The translations under genes were made by a program, and so were the position numbers. Of a stretch of 64,000 nt of DNA, positions 17,251-22,955 are shown piece after piece. The DNA lies in the NCBI GenBank assembly GCA_963770495.1, contig CAVYQA010000002.1, positions 16,955 to 80,954 of the forward strand, given 5' to 3'. Position 1 is the first letter of the stretch; each line of letters opens with the position of its first letter. Under the pieces are notes generated by a model. The model saw nothing but the letters and a program-made list of their open reading frames with translations, was not told the DNA's origin and searched no databases. The DNA is from Chitinophagales bacterium. Lineage in GTDB: Bacteria; Bacteroidota; Bacteroidia; Chitinophagales; CAVYQA01.

Positions 17251-17304
17251 AAAAGTGATTTTATGGAATACAAATTTATAAGAACTTTGGTTCTGTAAAA
17301 ATAA

Positions 17305-17389
17305 TTGCCGTTAGTTTTAACTGCACTTGCCGTCAGTTTTAACTACTTGCCGTCAGTTTTAACTACTTGCCGTCAGTTTTAACTGACGG
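17305..17389 (+). repeat. REP array, 4 tandem units of ~20 bp ending in the palindrome ccgtcagttttaactgacgg
   Basis: Units ttgccgtcagttttaactac start at 17327, 17347 and 17367 (degenerate copy at 17305). Terminal 9-bp stem 17370-17378 / 17381-17389. Confidence 0.85.
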
Positions 17390-17416
17390 ATAATAAAAGC
17401 AGCACAACCTAAGGCT

Positions 17417-17863
17417 TTAGCCCAAAACATTGCTTTCAAATTTTTCCCATCCATACTTTATTCTAAACTCCTCTATTTCTTCAGCAAATGTCTTTTTTCT
17501 GTGATGTTCTTCCTGTGCATTAATATATTTCCTTATCCTCTCAACTTGTGATTGCCCGATAGAAACAGCGAAATAATCATCCTGCCAATTTATTTTCTCT
17601 TTACACATTCCGCTTTCATTTAACCAATGTGCCGATTCACCTTTTAATAAGTGCATTGTTTTTGCAATTGTTTGTTCTTTATCCAATGAAAACAAACAAT
17701 GTACGTGATCTGTGTATCCGTTTACCACATCTATCCAAATTCCTTTGCTCCTTCCATAATTAATAATATGAGTGTATAAACTCGTTCTGATTTCTTTAGT
17801 CAGCATTGGTTGCCTGTTTTTAGTAGACCATACAGCGTGTATCCAAACTGTTACATAAGACAT
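17417..17863 (-). CDS. REP-associated tyrosine transposase (RAYT; IS200-like Y1 HUH transposase)
   Basis: VWSTKNRQP, HUH motif DHVHCLF, C-terminal YINAQEEHH (catalytic Tyr region). 148 aa, flanked by REP arrays. Confidence 0.85.
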   Translation of the reverse strand: MSYVTVWIHAVWSTKNRQPMLTKEIRTSLYTHIINYGRSKGIWIDVVNGYTDHVHCLFSLDKEQTIAKTMHLLKGESAHWLNESGMCKEKINWQDDYFAVSIGQSQVERIRKYINAQEEHHRKKTFAEEIEEFRIKYGWEKFESNVLG

Positions 17864-17917
17864 AAATTTCAGTTTTTGTTTGGGGGCTAAAGCCTAAAAT
17901 TATTATAATTTCTGTTC

Positions 17918-17984
17918 CCGTCAGTTAAAACTGACGGCAATTTCAGTTAAAACTGACGGCAATTTCTGCTCAAGCAAACGGCAA
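17918..17984 (-). repeat. REP array, about 3 units of 22 bp, inverted relative to the left array
   Basis: cccgtcagttaaaactgacggcaa, tttcagttaaaactgacggcaa, and a degenerate tttctgctcaagcaaacggcaa. Confidence 0.85.
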
Positions 17985-18017
17985 TTAAATGTTCTGAAAC
18001 AGGGGGGATTATTTCAA

Positions 18018-18401: not shown

Positions 18402-18937
18402 TGGTATCAATTTAGCATTAAACACAAATAAAGCGTTTACACTAAGACAATAGTTACATAAATTATGCCACAAGATAGTAATATTTTATAATAAATGTAA
18501 TACCCAATTATGAACCGATGTTACAAAGTGTAGCAAATACTGAACGGCAGGGTTTAATTGCAGAAAGGTAAAAAGTTTTAAAAGTGACGCGACTATTTTT
18601 ATGGTTTACACATTTTTATTTATTTATTTGTTGCTCAACAAATTACAACAAACCGGTAAACCATCATTCTTGACGTTTTCCTGACAAAGTAAACCGAAAA
18701 TAAATGGTAAATAAAGTCAGAACAATTACTTTTTACCGTACAAAATTTTCAAAGAACGATCTTAGAAAACAAAATTAGTGATATAAGTAATACCGTTAGA
18801 AAAGTTGGGACAAGAAGTTTTAGAATAAAAGAATATGGCTTTAAGTGAAAATGGGTTCGGGGTGGGGAAGGAATATTCACGGTAATAAAGTTGCCGGGTA
18901 GTTTTTTATTCATCCAAAAAATAGTTATTTTGCTCTT

Positions 18938-19306
18938 ATGAGAAAAGACCAGAAACATAACCTGGATTATTTAAAGCAGCGTCGCCGTGATTTACGTAAA
19001 CGCCTCACGCCGGCAGAAGCCACTCTTTGGAAACAATTGCAGAATCGTAAATTAAATAACAGAAAATTCACCAAACAACACAGCATAGAAAACTTTATTG
19101 TTGATTTTTATTGTTCTGAAGAAAAATTGGTAATTGAATTAGATGGGTAAGGACACAATAATTTGGGACAGGTGAATTATGATGAAGAACGCGATAACAG
19201 GTTACAGAAATTAGGTTTTAAAGTTTTACGGTTTGAGAATAAACTTGTTTTTGATAATTTGGATTATGTGCTAATGAGTATTTGCGCCTGTTTTAAATTC
19301 ACTTAA
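18938..19306 (+). pseudogene. DUF559 (Vsr-like endonuclease domain) gene with an in-frame TAA at 19148-19150
   Basis: LTPAEATLWKQLQNRKL...FIVDFYCSEEKLVIELDG*GH...ERDNRLQKLGFKVLRFEN. The same frame continues to the TAA at 19304-19306. Confidence 0.8.
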
Positions 19307-19325
19307 ACTATCATTACACACCCAA

Positions 19326-19472
19326 CTCCCCTCCTGTTTTTAGGAGGGGACAGAGCGATGAGCGCAGCCGGGAGGTTTTTTTTAATTAAATAATATTAGC
19401 TGATTTTTTTAACAGACTTGACCTCCCCGGCTCCCCGCAAAGCTTAGCCCCCTCCTAAAAACAGGAGGGGAG
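19326..19472. repeat. ~147-bp foldback element with two GC-rich hairpins in opposite orientation
   Basis: tcccctcctgtttttaggagggga (19327-19350) and cccctcctaaaaacaggagggg (19449-19470) are reverse complements. Inner arms gccgggaggt / acctccccggc, with an AT-rich centre. Confidence 0.7.
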
Positions 19473-19571
19473 CTTTAAGGTCAGTGTGTTTTTCAATTGC
19501 CGCGCCTGTTAAGGCGCGGTGAAATAATAAAAGAATAAGGGCTTTAGGTGAAAATGGGGTTGGGGGTGAGG

Positions 19572-19616
19572 TACCTGTTTTCAGGTATATTGCAAAATAC
19601 CTGTTTCTGGGTATAT
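19572..19616 (+). promoter_or_regulatory. two dyad-like direct repeats upstream of the island operon (possible operator)
   Basis: tacctgttttcaggtatat (19572-19590; perfect TACCTG-N4-CAGGTA) and tacctgtttctgggtatat (19598-19616), 26 bp apart and 66-110 nt upstream of the ATG at 19682. Confidence 0.25.
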
Positions 19617-19681
19617 ATTATATGTAATATTTATTGCAGTTTTGTTGAGGGAAATATTTAAGTAACTTTAATTAAAAAAAT

Positions 19682-20110
19682 ATGCTTAATACCCCTAGAG
19701 GAAAACTTGGAATTGCTTATGCAGTTATTCTAATAAGTATTTTACTCTTAATAAGACTTCATTTCTTCTATGACTATTATACAGAGAATGATTTTTTGTA
19801 CTTACCGTGTCGATTTTGGTGGTCTTTGGAAAGCATTCTTTTAGCTTTTGTAGTTATTGTTTTTAATGGCGCAAAAAACGATACAAGAAAATGGAAACAA
19901 ATTTTGATACCTTATTTAATAACTTACCCAATCTATATAGTTGTTATAAGCTGCCTTTTATTTGCTTTTGCCAATTCAAACGATGAATTAAAAAACAACT
20001 TGTACTACCCTTTTTCATTTGGTATGGGCATCTTTTTGGGAAGGTTAACCGATAAAATTATTAATAACCTATCTTCTTGGATTGAAAAAATGACTGATAA
20101 GATAACATAA
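19682..20110 (+). CDS. hypothetical small integral membrane protein (about 4 TM)
   Basis: 142 aa with four hydrophobic segments. AT-rich codon usage. Lies 12 nt upstream of the next ORF, so probably an operon. Confidence 0.55.
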   Translation: MLNTPRGKLGIAYAVILISILLLIRLHFFYDYYTENDFLYLPCRFWWSLESILLAFVVIVFNGAKNDTRKWKQILIPYLITYPIYIVVISCLLFAFANSNDELKNNLYYPFSFGMGIFLGRLTDKIINNLSSWIEKMTDKIT

Positions 20111-20122
20111 TCCTTATATATT

Positions 20123-20797
20123 ATGAGTAAAAGTGATAAACTCAATCAACTCTTTGAAAAATGGCAAAAGGTTAACCCCGCCTATGAAGAAAATTTTAGG
20201 TATGACGGAATAATCAATGAAGACTGTTATGAAAAAGCAAAACATAAAATTCTATTTATTTGTAAAGAACCTAATGGTAAAAACCATGAAGGGCATATAG
20301 GTGATTTCAGAAAGGAATGGAATGAAGAAGGGGCACAATACCCTTTTTCATATAGAATTGCTGAATGGTCATACGGTATTTTGAATAATTTTCCTTATTT
20401 AGATAATATTTACAATTCTGAAAATTGGGAAATTCCTTATAAAAATGCTTTGCGCTCCATTGCATTTATGAATCTGAAAAAAAGTGCCGGTAAAGGAACA
20501 TCAGAGTATTCTACTATGATAAAAGTCTTAGAGAATAGAGAAGAGAAAAAATATATACTTGATGAAATAAAAATTATTGATCCTGAAATAATTATTTTAG
20601 GTTTAACATGGAAAGAATTAAGCATTGAATTGATTAATGATATTGAATGGACTAACTCAGGGTATCAAATACTAATTGGCAAATGGGGGAAAAGAAAGGT
20701 TATAAATTTTTATCACCCATCATCGCGGAATGCACCATCAGCTGCATATTCATTGTTACAAAACATAGTTAGATCAAAAGAGTTTATTAATCTTTAA
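20123..20797 (+). CDS. hypothetical protein with uracil-DNA-glycosylase-superfamily-like motifs
   Basis: KILFICKEPNG (compare motif 1, GxxPG), SIAFMNLKKS (compare family-4 TNxVK), VINFYHPSSRN (compare HPSPRN/HPSPL motif 2). The order and spacing are plausible for the UDG fold. Confidence 0.55.
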   Translation: MSKSDKLNQLFEKWQKVNPAYEENFRYDGIINEDCYEKAKHKILFICKEPNGKNHEGHIGDFRKEWNEEGAQYPFSYRIAEWSYGILNNFPYLDNIYNSENWEIPYKNALRSIAFMNLKKSAGKGTSEYSTMIKVLENREEKKYILDEIKIIDPEIIILGLTWKELSIELINDIEWTNSGYQILIGKWGKRKVINFYHPSSRNAPSAAYSLLQNIVRSKEFINL

Positions 20798-20852
20798 TAT
20801 TTAGTTTGTGGTTGGTGGATTTTATTTGAGTTTTTTTAATACCAAACACGAC

Positions 20853-21962
20853 TTAGTCTCCTGTTTCTTTTTCTTTCCAAATTGAAGTTGAGTATCCTGT
20901 TTTACCATCAATTAAAGGAAGTCTTTTAGTAAATGCTTCTTCAGGATTGAATATTGCTTCTTGTTGCATTATAAAATTAATAAGATGAATTGAAATTGGA
21001 ACACCGAGTGCAATTCTAATTTTGATTAAAATTTGTCCAATATAAATAATGTCATTTAACCAGTCTACCGCTTCTTCTAGTGTAATAACAAGAGTAGGTG
21101 GGTCAAAATGATTAAGATGATTTCTTAAAGTCTTTAATTTATTAAGTTTAGGTAGTTCGGCATCAATATCCAAATTGTTGCCTGTAATTTGATACACCCA
21201 ATGCAATTTATCTTTTAATCTCCTATTGTTTCTATCACCAAGTTTTTCTTTGTCAAAAATATTCCACCCCTTTTCTGGTGCGTACTTTGCCTTTATGTAA
21301 ATCTGAATAAGTGTTATTTCAAGAAGAGAAATTGAGTCATTAATTAGAGCTCTTAAATCTAAAATCCATTCAGGTTTTAGGCAATTTTCCGAATTCTCAA
21401 TTAGTAATTTTCTCTCTCTAATAATCCTCTTTATAAGTTGTGGTTGGAACGTTGTAAAAATGTGCCCTTCACGGTCCAATTTCGGTATTATAGGATATTT
21501 ATTTCCATATTGCATTTGAGGGGTTCCATCAACAACAAACACCGCTTCTTTATTTTTATCTTCGAAAAAATGGTAGTTTATACTTAGGTCTAAAGATATG
21601 TCAAGCCAAAAACACTCCATAGAAGGAAGATTAAATTTTAATGGCTCAAATTCTCCATCGTCCTTAAGTGTTTTAGTAAATAAAAGATAATTTATGTTTT
21701 TAGATTCAAGAGTTTCCTTTGTTTTAGGATGTTGCCATTTTATACGATAGTTATTATTGTCCTTTTTCCATTGCTTGCTTGTTTGTCTTATTTCTTTTAA
21801 ATAAAAGCTCGTTAAAATTTTTGCGGCGTGAGTTAGGAATCCGGTTATAGGTTTGCCAGTAAACAAAATATATTTATGATTGGGATCCCGTTCATATCCT
21901 TGTTGTCTTAATGCTGATAAAAGTTTACCATCCATATTAAGAATAAATTTCTCATTACTCAT
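20853..21962 (-). CDS. hypothetical protein, helical C-terminal half with a HEPN-like R-x4-H motif
   Basis: KLKTLRNHLNHFDPP (R-N-x3-H) sits in a predicted all-alpha C-terminal half. The N-terminal ~200 aa is unassigned. Very AT-rich. Confidence 0.5.
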   Translation of the reverse strand: MSNEKFILNMDGKLLSALRQQGYERDPNHKYILFTGKPITGFLTHAAKILTSFYLKEIRQTSKQWKKDNNNYRIKWQHPKTKETLESKNINYLLFTKTLKDDGEFEPLKFNLPSMECFWLDISLDLSINYHFFEDKNKEAVFVVDGTPQMQYGNKYPIIPKLDREGHIFTTFQPQLIKRIIRERKLLIENSENCLKPEWILDLRALINDSISLLEITLIQIYIKAKYAPEKGWNIFDKEKLGDRNNRRLKDKLHWVYQITGNNLDIDAELPKLNKLKTLRNHLNHFDPPTLVITLEEAVDWLNDIIYIGQILIKIRIALGVPISIHLINFIMQQEAIFNPEEAFTKRLPLIDGKTGYSTSIWKEKETGD

Positions 21963-22227
21963 TGGAATTGATTTTAAATTAAAATATGCCCCTTTTGGTT
22001 TTTAATCATTTACATTCTATCATAAATATAAAATTTTATTATCTATAATCAATATGCCGTGTCGCGTATCTCACACCCCGCGCCCAAAAAAGCTGTCCCA
22101 ACTTCTCGCACAGTGTAACTTCTAAAAGTAATTTTGTAAATCGTTCTTTGAAATGCTGTTTAGTTAAAGGTAGCCTTGCCACCCTCTAACTCCCTAAAGG
22201 GAGAACCGCTCCGCTCACCACAAACCC

Positions 22228-22442: not shown

Positions 22443-22955
22443 CTATGGTGGAGGGAGGAGGTTTAACACACCGCTCACTTTAGCTTCATGCTCCAGCAGC
22501 CATTGTTTGCGCCACAAGCCGCCGCCATAGCCAATCAGCGAGCCATCGCTGCCAATAACCCGGTGGCAGGGAACAATTACACACACATTATTACTGCCGT
22601 TAGCCGTGCCCACCGCCCTTATACTTTTCGGGTTGCCGATTTTCTTAGCCAGTTGCAGGTAGGATATGGTTTTCCCAAGCGGAATATTGCGCAGTTCCTG
22701 CCACACTTTTTGCTGAAACGGCGTTCCTTCCTGCTCTATTGGCAGTGTAAACGCTGCCCGCTTACCGCTGAAATATTCGGTTAACTGTTTCACACAGTCT
22801 TTAAGCACCTTTGGCGGGTGCGAGCTTTCATGCTCTAAATTTTCGGTAAGAAGAACGGAAACAACCGCCTCATCAGTGGTTTTTATTTCGGCATAACCTA
22901 TAGGCGAATGCAGATATGACGTATACAAATCAGTGCGGGGTGCAGCGATTTTCAT
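22443..22955 (-). CDS. ogt: methylated-DNA--protein-cysteine methyltransferase
   Basis: VIVPCHRVIGSDGSLIGYGGG active-site PCHR motif, with an HTH-like region TISYLQLAKKIG. Confidence 0.9.
   Translation of the reverse strand: MKIAAPRTDLYTSYLHSPIGYAEIKTTDEAVVSVLLTENLEHESSHPPKVLKDCVKQLTEYFSGKRAAFTLPIEQEGTPFQQKVWQELRNIPLGKTISYLQLAKKIGNPKSIRAVGTANGSNNVCVIVPCHRVIGSDGSLIGYGGGLWRKQWLLEHEAKVSGVLNLLPPP

Follow-up and report, generated by a model that had tools for sequence, protein, structure and literature searches.

A gene in the window studied here, a stretch of 64,000 nucleotides (nt) from contig CAVYQA010000002.1 of a Chitinophagales bacterium, encodes a protein of 224 residues which by fold and homology almost certainly belongs to the uracil-DNA glycosylase (UDG) superfamily. 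The open reading frame (ORF) lies at positions 20123 to 20797 of the plus strand, exactly as listed in an earlier prediction made from the letters of the DNA, which described the product as UDG-like and raised the idea of a role in defence. We read the gene, with a probability of about 60%, as coding for a stand-alone, monofunctional glycosylase of this superfamily that would have been recruited for anti-phage defence, in the manner of the antiviral glycosylases Brig1, Brig2 and Brig3. Defence glycosylases of the Brig type are already known; the family to which the protein belongs is large and unannotated and has a distinct active-site signature.

Fold and homology of the 224-residue protein

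The AlphaFold2 model of the protein had a predicted local distance difference test score (pLDDT) of 92.9 and a predicted template modelling score of 0.92. According to DSSP, the strands of the model follow each other in the UDG layout, i.e., residues 43-47, 114-117 and 156-160, a hairpin at 184-195, and then the sequence YHPS. The best 15 matches in a Foldseek search of the Protein Data Bank (PDB) were all members of the UDG superfamily, with probabilities of 0.93-1.00 and template modelling scores (TM-scores) of 0.39-0.57, and they included 1l9g (E 4.9e-4), 4zby, UdgX, MUG/TDG and SMUG1. In a library of viral structures (BFVD) the top matches were COG1573 UDGs and the UDG-like domains of phage DNA polymerases. 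Modelling followed by Foldseek had been named in the original prediction as a check of its assignment, and the UDG fold was borne out by it, as well as by the profile searches, Pfam matches and profile alignments presented below.

A profile built from 89 family sequences and run against PDB sequences matched 4zbx (E 8e-6), 1l9g (1.2e-4), 1vk2 (1.3e-4) and 1ui0 (5.6e-4), and below E 0.1 it gave family-4 UDGs and nothing else. With an earlier family profile, the best four UDG matches were also all from family 4 (4zbx, E 0.004). In the HMMER alignments to 4zbx, 1l9g, 1vk2 and 1ui0, residues H198-P199 were placed on the H-P of family 4 each time. Profile-to-profile alignment by hhalign of the 89-sequence family with seven annotated family-4 UDGs, taken from plasmids, gave a probability of 95.9% and an E value of 5.9e-9 over 80 columns, covering residues 113-202. 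Here, IAFMNLKK is paired with VYFTNVVRC, which puts N117 on an Asn invariant in the seven family-4 UDGs, and YHPS is paired with FHPA, which puts H198-P199 on their invariant H-P. Two of the likenesses drawn in the original prediction are recovered in this alignment: the block SIAFMNLKKS had been compared to the family-4 motif TNxVKCRPP, and FMNLKK indeed lies on TNVxKCRPP, while the third block had been compared to the motif HPSPL, and H198 lies on the invariant His.

The Pfam family PF03167 was touched individually by 39 of 52 family members at E<=1, with a best E value of 3.7e-5. The matches of members P0013 and P0114 begin at strand beta1 and extend through motif B, pairing residues 37-198 with positions 4-125 of the 141 in the profile. 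Among ten members whose scores were inspected none reached the gathering threshold of PF03167, which is 24.3 bits, the best score being 22.5. The window protein taken alone gave no meaningful match in Pfam (E<=1), PADLOC, NCBIfam, PDB sequences or PHROGs. The HMMER comparison with Pfam UDG that had been proposed as a check gave matches for most members, not for the window protein itself, and the inspected scores stayed below threshold.

The N-terminal half, motif A included, found no significant UDG match, neither with the profile against PDB nor against the family-4 UDGs, and the family-4 hidden Markov model gave no alignment across GEAPG. Aligned by hhalign with Mug and with Ung of E. coli, each as a single sequence, the family reached a probability of at most 1% (Mug 1%), and a search for homologues with a 58-residue fragment of TM0511 returned no matches. 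A forced global hhalign alignment placed GEAPG on the sequence AEWSYG with low confidence; this placement was rejected, as the model has a helix at residues 74-87. The likeness of KEPNG to GEAPG that had been suggested for motif A is supported only by topology, as KEPNG directly follows the strand at residues 43-47 and is covered by two of the Pfam envelopes, and not by a significant alignment.

Could the resemblance to UDGs be superficial? A generic Rossmann-like alpha/beta protein, for example of nucleotide or cofactor metabolism, in which the triad of motifs is a coincidence, would fit with the missing database matches of the single sequence and of the N-terminal half. The TM-scores to UDGs of only about 0.5, and the presence of MoaB/MoeA and anthranilate phosphoribosyltransferase lower in the Foldseek list, point in the same direction. 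We consider this highly improbable. The non-UDG matches in Foldseek had probabilities of 0.05-0.66, against 0.93-1.00 for the 15 UDGs, the independent viral library agreed with PDB, UDGs alone were found by the profile below E 0.1, and the hhalign alignment has two catalytic landmarks in register.

The family, its signature and a proposed mechanism

A search of 5.8 billion proteins returned 198 close relatives, nearly all of them 215-235 residues long, about 50% identical and without a precomputed Pfam domain. When 1.84 billion representatives were searched exhaustively with a profile, 3,846 clusters at 50% identity were counted with E<=1e-3, and 2,145 with E<=1e-10. One family member is labelled “Uracil-DNA glycosylase” in UniRef. 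No homologues were found by tblastn in 50,697 phage genomes.

Among the residues invariant in the 52-sequence alignment are K48, E49, N51, K119, K120, G123, Y197, H198, P199 and S200, with N117 and R202 conserved in 90% or more of the sequences. The alignment of 89 sequences reaches down to 19-30% identity; there, G29 and K120 show no variation, and D28, K48, E49, N117, K119, H198 and P199 still reach a conservation of 90% or more. The active-site signature is kept in homologues from Firmicutes, Proteobacteria and Bacteroides that are 25-30% identical. The three motif blocks which had drawn attention to the gene are more than a chance resemblance; the same blocks are the most conserved ones across the large family. 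Two of them, KILFICKEPNG (residues 42-52) and SIAFMNLKKS (112-121), were found as first described; the third, VINFYHPSSRNAPS, comprises residues 193-206, its earlier numbering being off by one. Iron-sulphur cysteines had been reported absent, and neither the 52- nor the 89-sequence alignment contains a single conserved Cys column. Compared with family-4 UDGs, the family has several extras: an N-terminal helix, the conserved pair D28-G29, and a two-helix insertion at residues 53-89, some 35 residues long, in which D61, R63, W66, F75, R78, E81 and W82 are conserved in the 52-sequence alignment.

When the sequences are registered on the proline of motif A, E49 takes the catalytic position of UNG, MUG, SMUG1 and Brig3, and N51 falls where UNG has Tyr and Brig3 has S52. 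In UNG the motif is GQDPY with a catalytic Asp; MUG (GINPG) and SMUG1 (GMNPG) both have a catalytic Asn. The corresponding motif of Brig3 is N50-P51-S52, with N50 as the catalytic residue (bioRxiv 10.64898/2026.02.25.707755). From motif register and topology we propose E49 as the water-activating residue and place N51 beside C5 of the flipped-out base. These roles lean on topology because the N-terminal half has no significant match to UDGs. The spacing from F90 to N117 is 27 residues, the same as from F55 to N82 in the S. tokodaii enzyme (StoUDG) and from W100 to D127 in Brig3. N117 takes the position of Brig1 E147 and Brig3 D127 by a mapping that is transitive, via StoUDG N82 and hhalign, and not direct.

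The enzyme would scan DNA and flip a non-canonical pyrimidine into its pocket, where N117 would read the Watson-Crick face, H198 would stabilise the O2 oxyanion of the leaving base, and E49, the residue just before the motif-A proline, would activate water. The insertion 53-89 may shape a larger pocket suited to a modified base. Excision would leave modified phage DNA riddled with abasic sites and so block its replication, and host DNA, which is without the modified base, would be spared. No partner gene would be needed for this, and the two genes that flank the UDG-like gene in the window would be local accidents of its island.

As to the target, Kavli et al. are said to have found in 1996 that the substitution N204D in human UNG creates cytosine-DNA glycosylase activity. 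At the position where the cytosine-directed Brig1 and Brig3 carry Glu and Asp, Asn has been retained in our family, and we therefore infer a uracil- or thymine-type target. That the modified base is of this type, i.e., uracil, 5-hydroxymethyluracil (5-hmU) or a hypermodified thymine, is offered tentatively, as a possibility somewhat short of even odds.

Gene neighbourhoods of the family and of the window

Relatives of the protein occur sporadically. Only 94 were found in 185,579 species genomes, in a scan that was biased by our own search patterns and dominated by Bacteroidota; the taxa were Bacteroidota, Ignavibacteria, Calditrichia, Leptospira, Gamma-, Beta- and Alphaproteobacteria, and Firmicutes. 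Statistics on loci were calculated from 71 non-redundant ones. The gene is more AT-rich than its distal flanks in 91% of loci, with a median difference in G+C content of -5.2 points.

Eight contexts were inspected independently by means of precomputed Pfam annotation, and all eight had defence genes within about 7 kb. The first contained AbiH, HEPN, an MmeI-type IIG enzyme and GmrSD, the second Mrr and a Type I restriction-modification (RM) system, the third giant SNF2/DEAD helicases and an integrase, the fourth a Type I RM system and SIR2, the fifth a Type I RM system, and the sixth an AAA_15 ATPase. In the seventh, the closest homologue, 59% identical, stands last, at the 3' end of a dndB/C/D/E-like operon with a HARE-HTH gene, and in the eighth an E2-CBASS was found together with a GIY-YIG gene overlapping the start of the UDG-like gene. 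Type I RM subunits were present in 12 of the 71 loci and integrases in six. For 140 proteins encoded one or two genes from a family member, PADLOC gave matches to 499 defence families; for 140 others in the same loci, at a distance of eight genes or more, the figure was 163. This contrast goes in the expected direction, but it is crude and counts families and not proteins. The PADLOC matches near family members included GajA (E 4.5e-169), AriA, Old and PtuA, and Gabija-, PARIS- and Dnd-like genes are among the neighbours of relatives. One homologue (WP_166015498.1, 214 residues, 30% identical over the full length and annotated as hypothetical) is a cassette in an array of superintegron type on plasmid NZ_CP049914.1 of Vibrio sp. 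HDW18 (locus L089, 589024-599487), together with catB9, VOC proteins, RelE/ParE, GNAT, a SIR2 protein and DUF2726. The idea of a defence function gains from these contexts and from the precedent of Brig1, Brig2 and Brig3, whose antiviral glycosylase action was demonstrated by experiment, and it keeps its conditional standing.

Several points weigh against the reading as an antiviral glycosylase. To the Pfam scores below the cut-off, the matchless single sequence, the unmatched N-terminal half and the crudeness of the PADLOC contrast it should be added that both the glycosylase and the antiviral role of the family are predicted, from fold, residues, context and precedent, and that the link to defence is one of guilt by association. 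The step from Asn to a U/T-type substrate hangs on one residue and deserves modest confidence. Moreover, the window copy lies about 1.6 kb from the repair gene ogt, and family member P0010 sits among the housekeeping genes dcd, cdaA and folP.

The last two settings would suit a housekeeping or back-up glycosylase of base-excision repair, directed at uracil, 5-hmU or another damaged pyrimidine in the cell's own DNA and carried on mobile DNA. Such an enzyme would be expected to share with repair UDGs an Asn of the uracil type and the His of motif B, as the family does; the UniRef name of one member and the residual uracil activity of Brig1 and Brig3 speak for it as well. We hold this to be quite unlikely, since 94 hits in a scan of 185,579 species make a distribution far sparser and patchier than that expected of a core repair gene, the G+C content of the gene is below that of its surroundings in 91% of loci, restriction and defence genes prevail over repair genes among the neighbours, one homologue is an integron cassette, and ogt itself lies outside the AT-rich islet of the window.

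Another explanation is that the protein works as one component of a multi-gene system, either as the base-excising arm of “restriction” together with a nuclease or an RM/Dnd module, or as a catalytically quiet sensor that triggers a neighbouring effector, e.g., a HEPN-like or membrane protein. A co-oriented gene within 50 nt is found upstream in 30 of 70 loci and downstream in 21 of 69, an MmeI-type IIG gene follows the UDG-like gene after 3 nt in several loci, and the closest homologue ends a dnd-like operon after a HARE-HTH protein; in addition, Brig3 has a helper, BapA. The order of genes in locus L102 (1-6678) is PAPS_reduct (DndC-like), AAA_23 (DndD-like), a DndE-DUF87 ATPase, a 173-residue protein without assigned family, DndB, a 79-residue HARE-HTH protein and the UDG-like gene, with an overlap of 4 nt between its start and the gene before it. 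We find a role as one component of such a system unlikely. No partner is conserved: the tightly linked neighbours represent 80 Pfam families, the commonest of which, DUF6150, was found in five of 51, and tightly linked neighbours are missing altogether from 32 of 68 loci. No homologue of the two genes flanking the window copy was found near other members, and the full conservation of catalytic-type residues speaks against a quiet sensor.

Putative small nucleases of unrelated folds were observed directly upstream in some lineages (L003, 5440-5997; L006, 5500-6000; the P0012 contig). In six loci of the Flagellimonas/Croceivirga clade the upstream protein has 166-185 residues and a D..ExK-like motif, recognised by eye; no Pfam, PHROG or PDB support was obtained for it as a PD-(D/E)xK nuclease, which counts against the multi-gene explanation that the putative nucleases otherwise favour. 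In one lineage the gene of a 121-residue GIY-YIG protein overlaps the UDG-like start codon, and one AP_endonuc_2 TIM-barrel (apurinic/apyrimidinic endonuclease 2) gene was found among the tightly linked neighbours. These upstream genes hint at glycosylase-nuclease pairs. The DUF6150 protein, of 87-94 residues, is encoded at position -1 in loci L019, L021, L029 and L030 and also matches the phage family phrog_6462, whose function is unassigned. P0010 (loci L104-L106) is a protein of 313 residues in which an N-terminal extension with two transmembrane (TM) helices is fused to the UDG-like domain. This recalls the membrane-type ORF of the window and is in line with a multi-gene arrangement; as a relative of that ORF the extension was rejected, there being no sequence similarity.

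The local layout in the window is as the original prediction had it. A hydrophobic ORF in the same orientation ends 12 nt before the UDG-like gene, and an ORF for 369 residues converges on it from downstream, with a gap of 55 nt. The island is AT-rich: where the window as a whole has a G+C content of about 0.40, the values here are 0.294 (20-21 kb) and 0.307 (21-22 kb); for the UDG-like gene itself the value is 0.298, against 0.402 in distal DNA. The features of the window are collected in Table 1.

Table 1. Features of the window around the UDG-like gene.
Feature	Position	Strand	Description
Divergent UDG-superfamily protein gene, candidate antiviral DNA glycosylase	20123..20797	+	ORF, ATG start, 224 residues
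Proposed motif A equivalent K48-E49-P50-N51-G52	20264..20278	+	directly 3' of strand beta1 (residues 43-47)
N117-L118-K119-K120	20471..20482	+	end of beta2 and loop after it; N117 on family-4 base-reading Asn by hhalign
Motif B Y197-H198-P199-S200-S201-R202	20711..20728	+	H198 on leaving-group-stabilising UDG His (HMMER, hhalign)
AT-rich islet of three genes (4-TM, UDG-like, HEPN-like)	19560..22100	.	G+C about 0.30 against 0.40; boundaries approximate
Hydrophobic ORF (4-TM protein)	19682..20110	+	142 residues, 3-4 TM segments by eye; possibly co-transcribed with the UDG-like gene
Convergent neighbour (HEPN-like)	20853..21962	-	369 residues; N-terminal alpha/beta domain of no known family, C-terminal helical domain
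ogt	22443..22955	-	just outside the islet
DUF559 pseudogene	18938..19315		in-frame TAA at 19151-19153
Direct repeats of about 40 nt	18824..18862 and 19526..19565		flank the DUF559 pseudogene
Imperfect inverted repeat of 44 nt	18769..18812 and 22094..22137		77% complementary, perfect ends of 9 nt
GC-rich palindromes	19326..19521		upstream of the 4-TM gene
IS200/Y1-type transposase gene	17417..17863	-	148 residues; lies within the region 17293-17986

The 4-TM protein of 142 residues had no match in Pfam, PADLOC, NCBIfam or PHROG. The 369-residue protein has a family of its own with 92 members and without a Pfam domain, and it gave no Pfam or PDB sequence match. Residues R280, N281, H282 and H285 are invariant, forming a HEPN-like R280-x4-H285 motif (R280-N-H-L-N-H285). 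In its AlphaFold2 model (pLDDT 88.7) the helical C-terminal part is similar to the HepT toxins 7bxo, 6m6w and 5yep, with TM-scores by target of 0.56-0.66 and weak E values of 0.6-3 in Foldseek; the label “HEPN-like” is plausible but provisional. The original prediction had treated these two genes as a meaningful context, and here it fails. Searched for by tblastn, homologues of both were absent from 85 loci of other genomes; apart from the window, the genes were present in just two contigs, as identical copies, and they were rejected as conserved partners.

To the left the islet is flanked by the DUF559 pseudogene, GC-rich hairpins and a transposase of IS200/RAYT type, and to the right by ogt, which encodes an Ogt/MGMT O6-alkylguanine-DNA alkyltransferase (PF01035, E 2.4e-35; PF02870). 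The DUF559 gene, for a Vsr-like endonuclease, is a pseudogene, because its TAA codon, which follows the residues “...VIELDG”, interrupts a reading frame that runs on to about position 19315. The inverted repeat encloses this pseudogene together with the three genes of the islet; its two arms may be the termini of an inserted element, or else a product of chance in AT-rich DNA. The palindromes upstream of the 4-TM gene consist of CCCCTCCTGTTTTTAGGAGGGG, an inverted copy of CCCCTCCTGTTTTTAGGAGGGG, and GCCGCGCCTGTTAAGGCGCGGT, and are probably terminators or elements like repetitive extragenic palindromes (REP) at the left edge of the islet. The transposase (Pfam E 1.5e-27) has on both sides of its gene inverted arrays of a palindromic unit of 20-22 nt, TTGCCGTCAGTTTTAACTGACGGCAA, and looks like a REP-associated tyrosine transposase (RAYT) within its REP cluster.

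Significance and comparison with known glycosylases

Antiviral DNA glycosylases have been recognised only in 2024-2026, with three UDG-fold examples whose targets are known. The present family is far larger than the 42 reported homologues of Brig1 and is spread over many phyla, so if it is active, base-excision immunity would be common in Bacteroidota and beyond. Pfam, PADLOC and NCBIfam do not recognise the family at their own thresholds, and it has therefore been missed by catalogues of defence islands. A rule of specificity can be offered, by which Asn at the end of beta2 would go with U/T-type targets and Asp or Glu with C-type ones. Enzymes that excise specific hypermodified bases would also be useful reagents for mapping modifications of phage DNA. 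More speculatively, and with considerable doubt, we suggest a very large clade of the UDG fold (at least 3,800 clusters) with its own signature, D-G...K-E-P-N...N-x-K-K...Y-H-P-S, that would be distinct from Brig1, Brig2 and Brig3, as these are described, and would excise a U/T-derived hypermodified base or uracil from phage DNA. In some lineages it may form a two-step module of “base-excision restriction”, by way of small nucleases (GIY-YIG, D..ExK-like, AP-endonuclease-2-like) or membrane tethering.

The closest known proteins by sequence profile, by profile-profile alignment and by structure are the family-4 UDGs of the UdgA type, represented by T. maritima TM0511 (1l9g/1vk2) and the enzymes of S. 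tokodaii (4zbx/4zby) and T. thermophilus (1ui0). Common to both are the Asn of beta2, a helix-beta3 segment “P(D/E)IIv.G”, the beta-hairpin, the H-P of motif B and a size of about 200 residues. Family-4 enzymes carry the four cysteines of a [4Fe-4S] cluster (an invariant Cys, a C-x2-C pair and the Cys of KCRPP in the seven sequences), which our family is without. Their motif A is G-E-(A/G)-P-G, and ours is K-E-P-N-G; the family-4 sequence NxxKCRPPxNR corresponds to NxKKxxG, and both GEAPG and RPP are invariant in the seven enzymes. In addition, our family has the roughly 35 residues after motif A, the N-terminal helix and D28-G29 mentioned above, and its setting is accessory and defence-related, while that of family 4 is housekeeping. 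Judged by these sequence traits, the window protein lies outside family 4, because it lacks the iron-sulphur cysteines, GEAPG and RPP.

SMUG1 and MUG/TDG, which are UDG families 3 and 2, share the UDG fold, appear among the structural matches, and likewise have a motif B of the type H/N-P-S. The small residue after the motif-A proline, which admits 5-substituted pyrimidines in these enzymes, can be likened to the one in our family. Their motif A is G-(M/I)-N-P-G, and no similarity of sequence profiles was detected, the probability of hhalign against E. coli Mug being 1%.

Brig1 is an antiviral glycosylase that excises alpha-glucosyl-5-hydroxymethylcytosine and leaves abasic sites in phage DNA (Hossain et al., Nature 2024, PMC11078745). 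It is a protein of 261 residues encoded by a single gene, has the S. tokodaii UDG 4ZBY as best structural match and is found in defence islands near RM and BREX systems, and its 42 homologues are mostly actinobacterial (PMC11078745). Compared by description, our family resembles Brig1 in its single-gene habit, UDG fold, similar size, 4ZBY-type relative and defence setting. Residue E147 of Brig1 occupies a position that is “often asparagine”, e.g., N82 in StoUDG (PMC11078745); at this beta2 position Brig1 has Glu, while our family, by the transitive mapping, has Asn (N117).

Brig3, a 5-hydroxymethylcytosine DNA glycosylase, is encoded by a defence-island gene and has the helper BapA, part of its family being arranged in a two-gene operon (bioRxiv 10.64898/2026.02.25.707755). 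Its essential residues are N50, E55, W100, D127, R197 and N225; D127 was aligned with Brig1 E147, and both Brig1 and Brig3 keep residual uracil activity (bioRxiv 10.64898/2026.02.25.707755). N50-P51-S52 of Brig3 stands at nearly the same position as E49-P50-N51 in our protein, and in both an aromatic residue precedes the polar residue of beta2 by 27 positions. Compared by description, the two differ in that the key residues here would be E49, N117 and H198 and in the predicted class of target, and our family is without a BapA-like partner.

Brig2 is a UDG-like protein of an integron cassette that acts against thymidine-hypermodified Pseudomonas phages (Getz et al., bioRxiv 10.1101/2025.10.29.685425). 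More than 500 homologues were reported from Proteobacteria, Firmicutes and Bacteroidetes, mostly from Pseudomonadota, in AT-rich loci associated with mobile genetic elements (MGE) or defence (bioRxiv 10.1101/2025.10.29.685425). Compared by description, our family shares with Brig2 the UDG-like fold, the spread over phyla, the AT bias, a member in a Vibrio integron cassette and neighbours of MGE and RM type, and the predicted U/T-type target would match too. The homologues of Brig2 are mostly from Pseudomonadota, whereas our pattern-biased scan was dominated by Bacteroidota. Taken together, and as far as the published descriptions allow the comparison, the family would stand beside Brig1, Brig2 and Brig3 in fold, size, single-gene habit and genomic setting.

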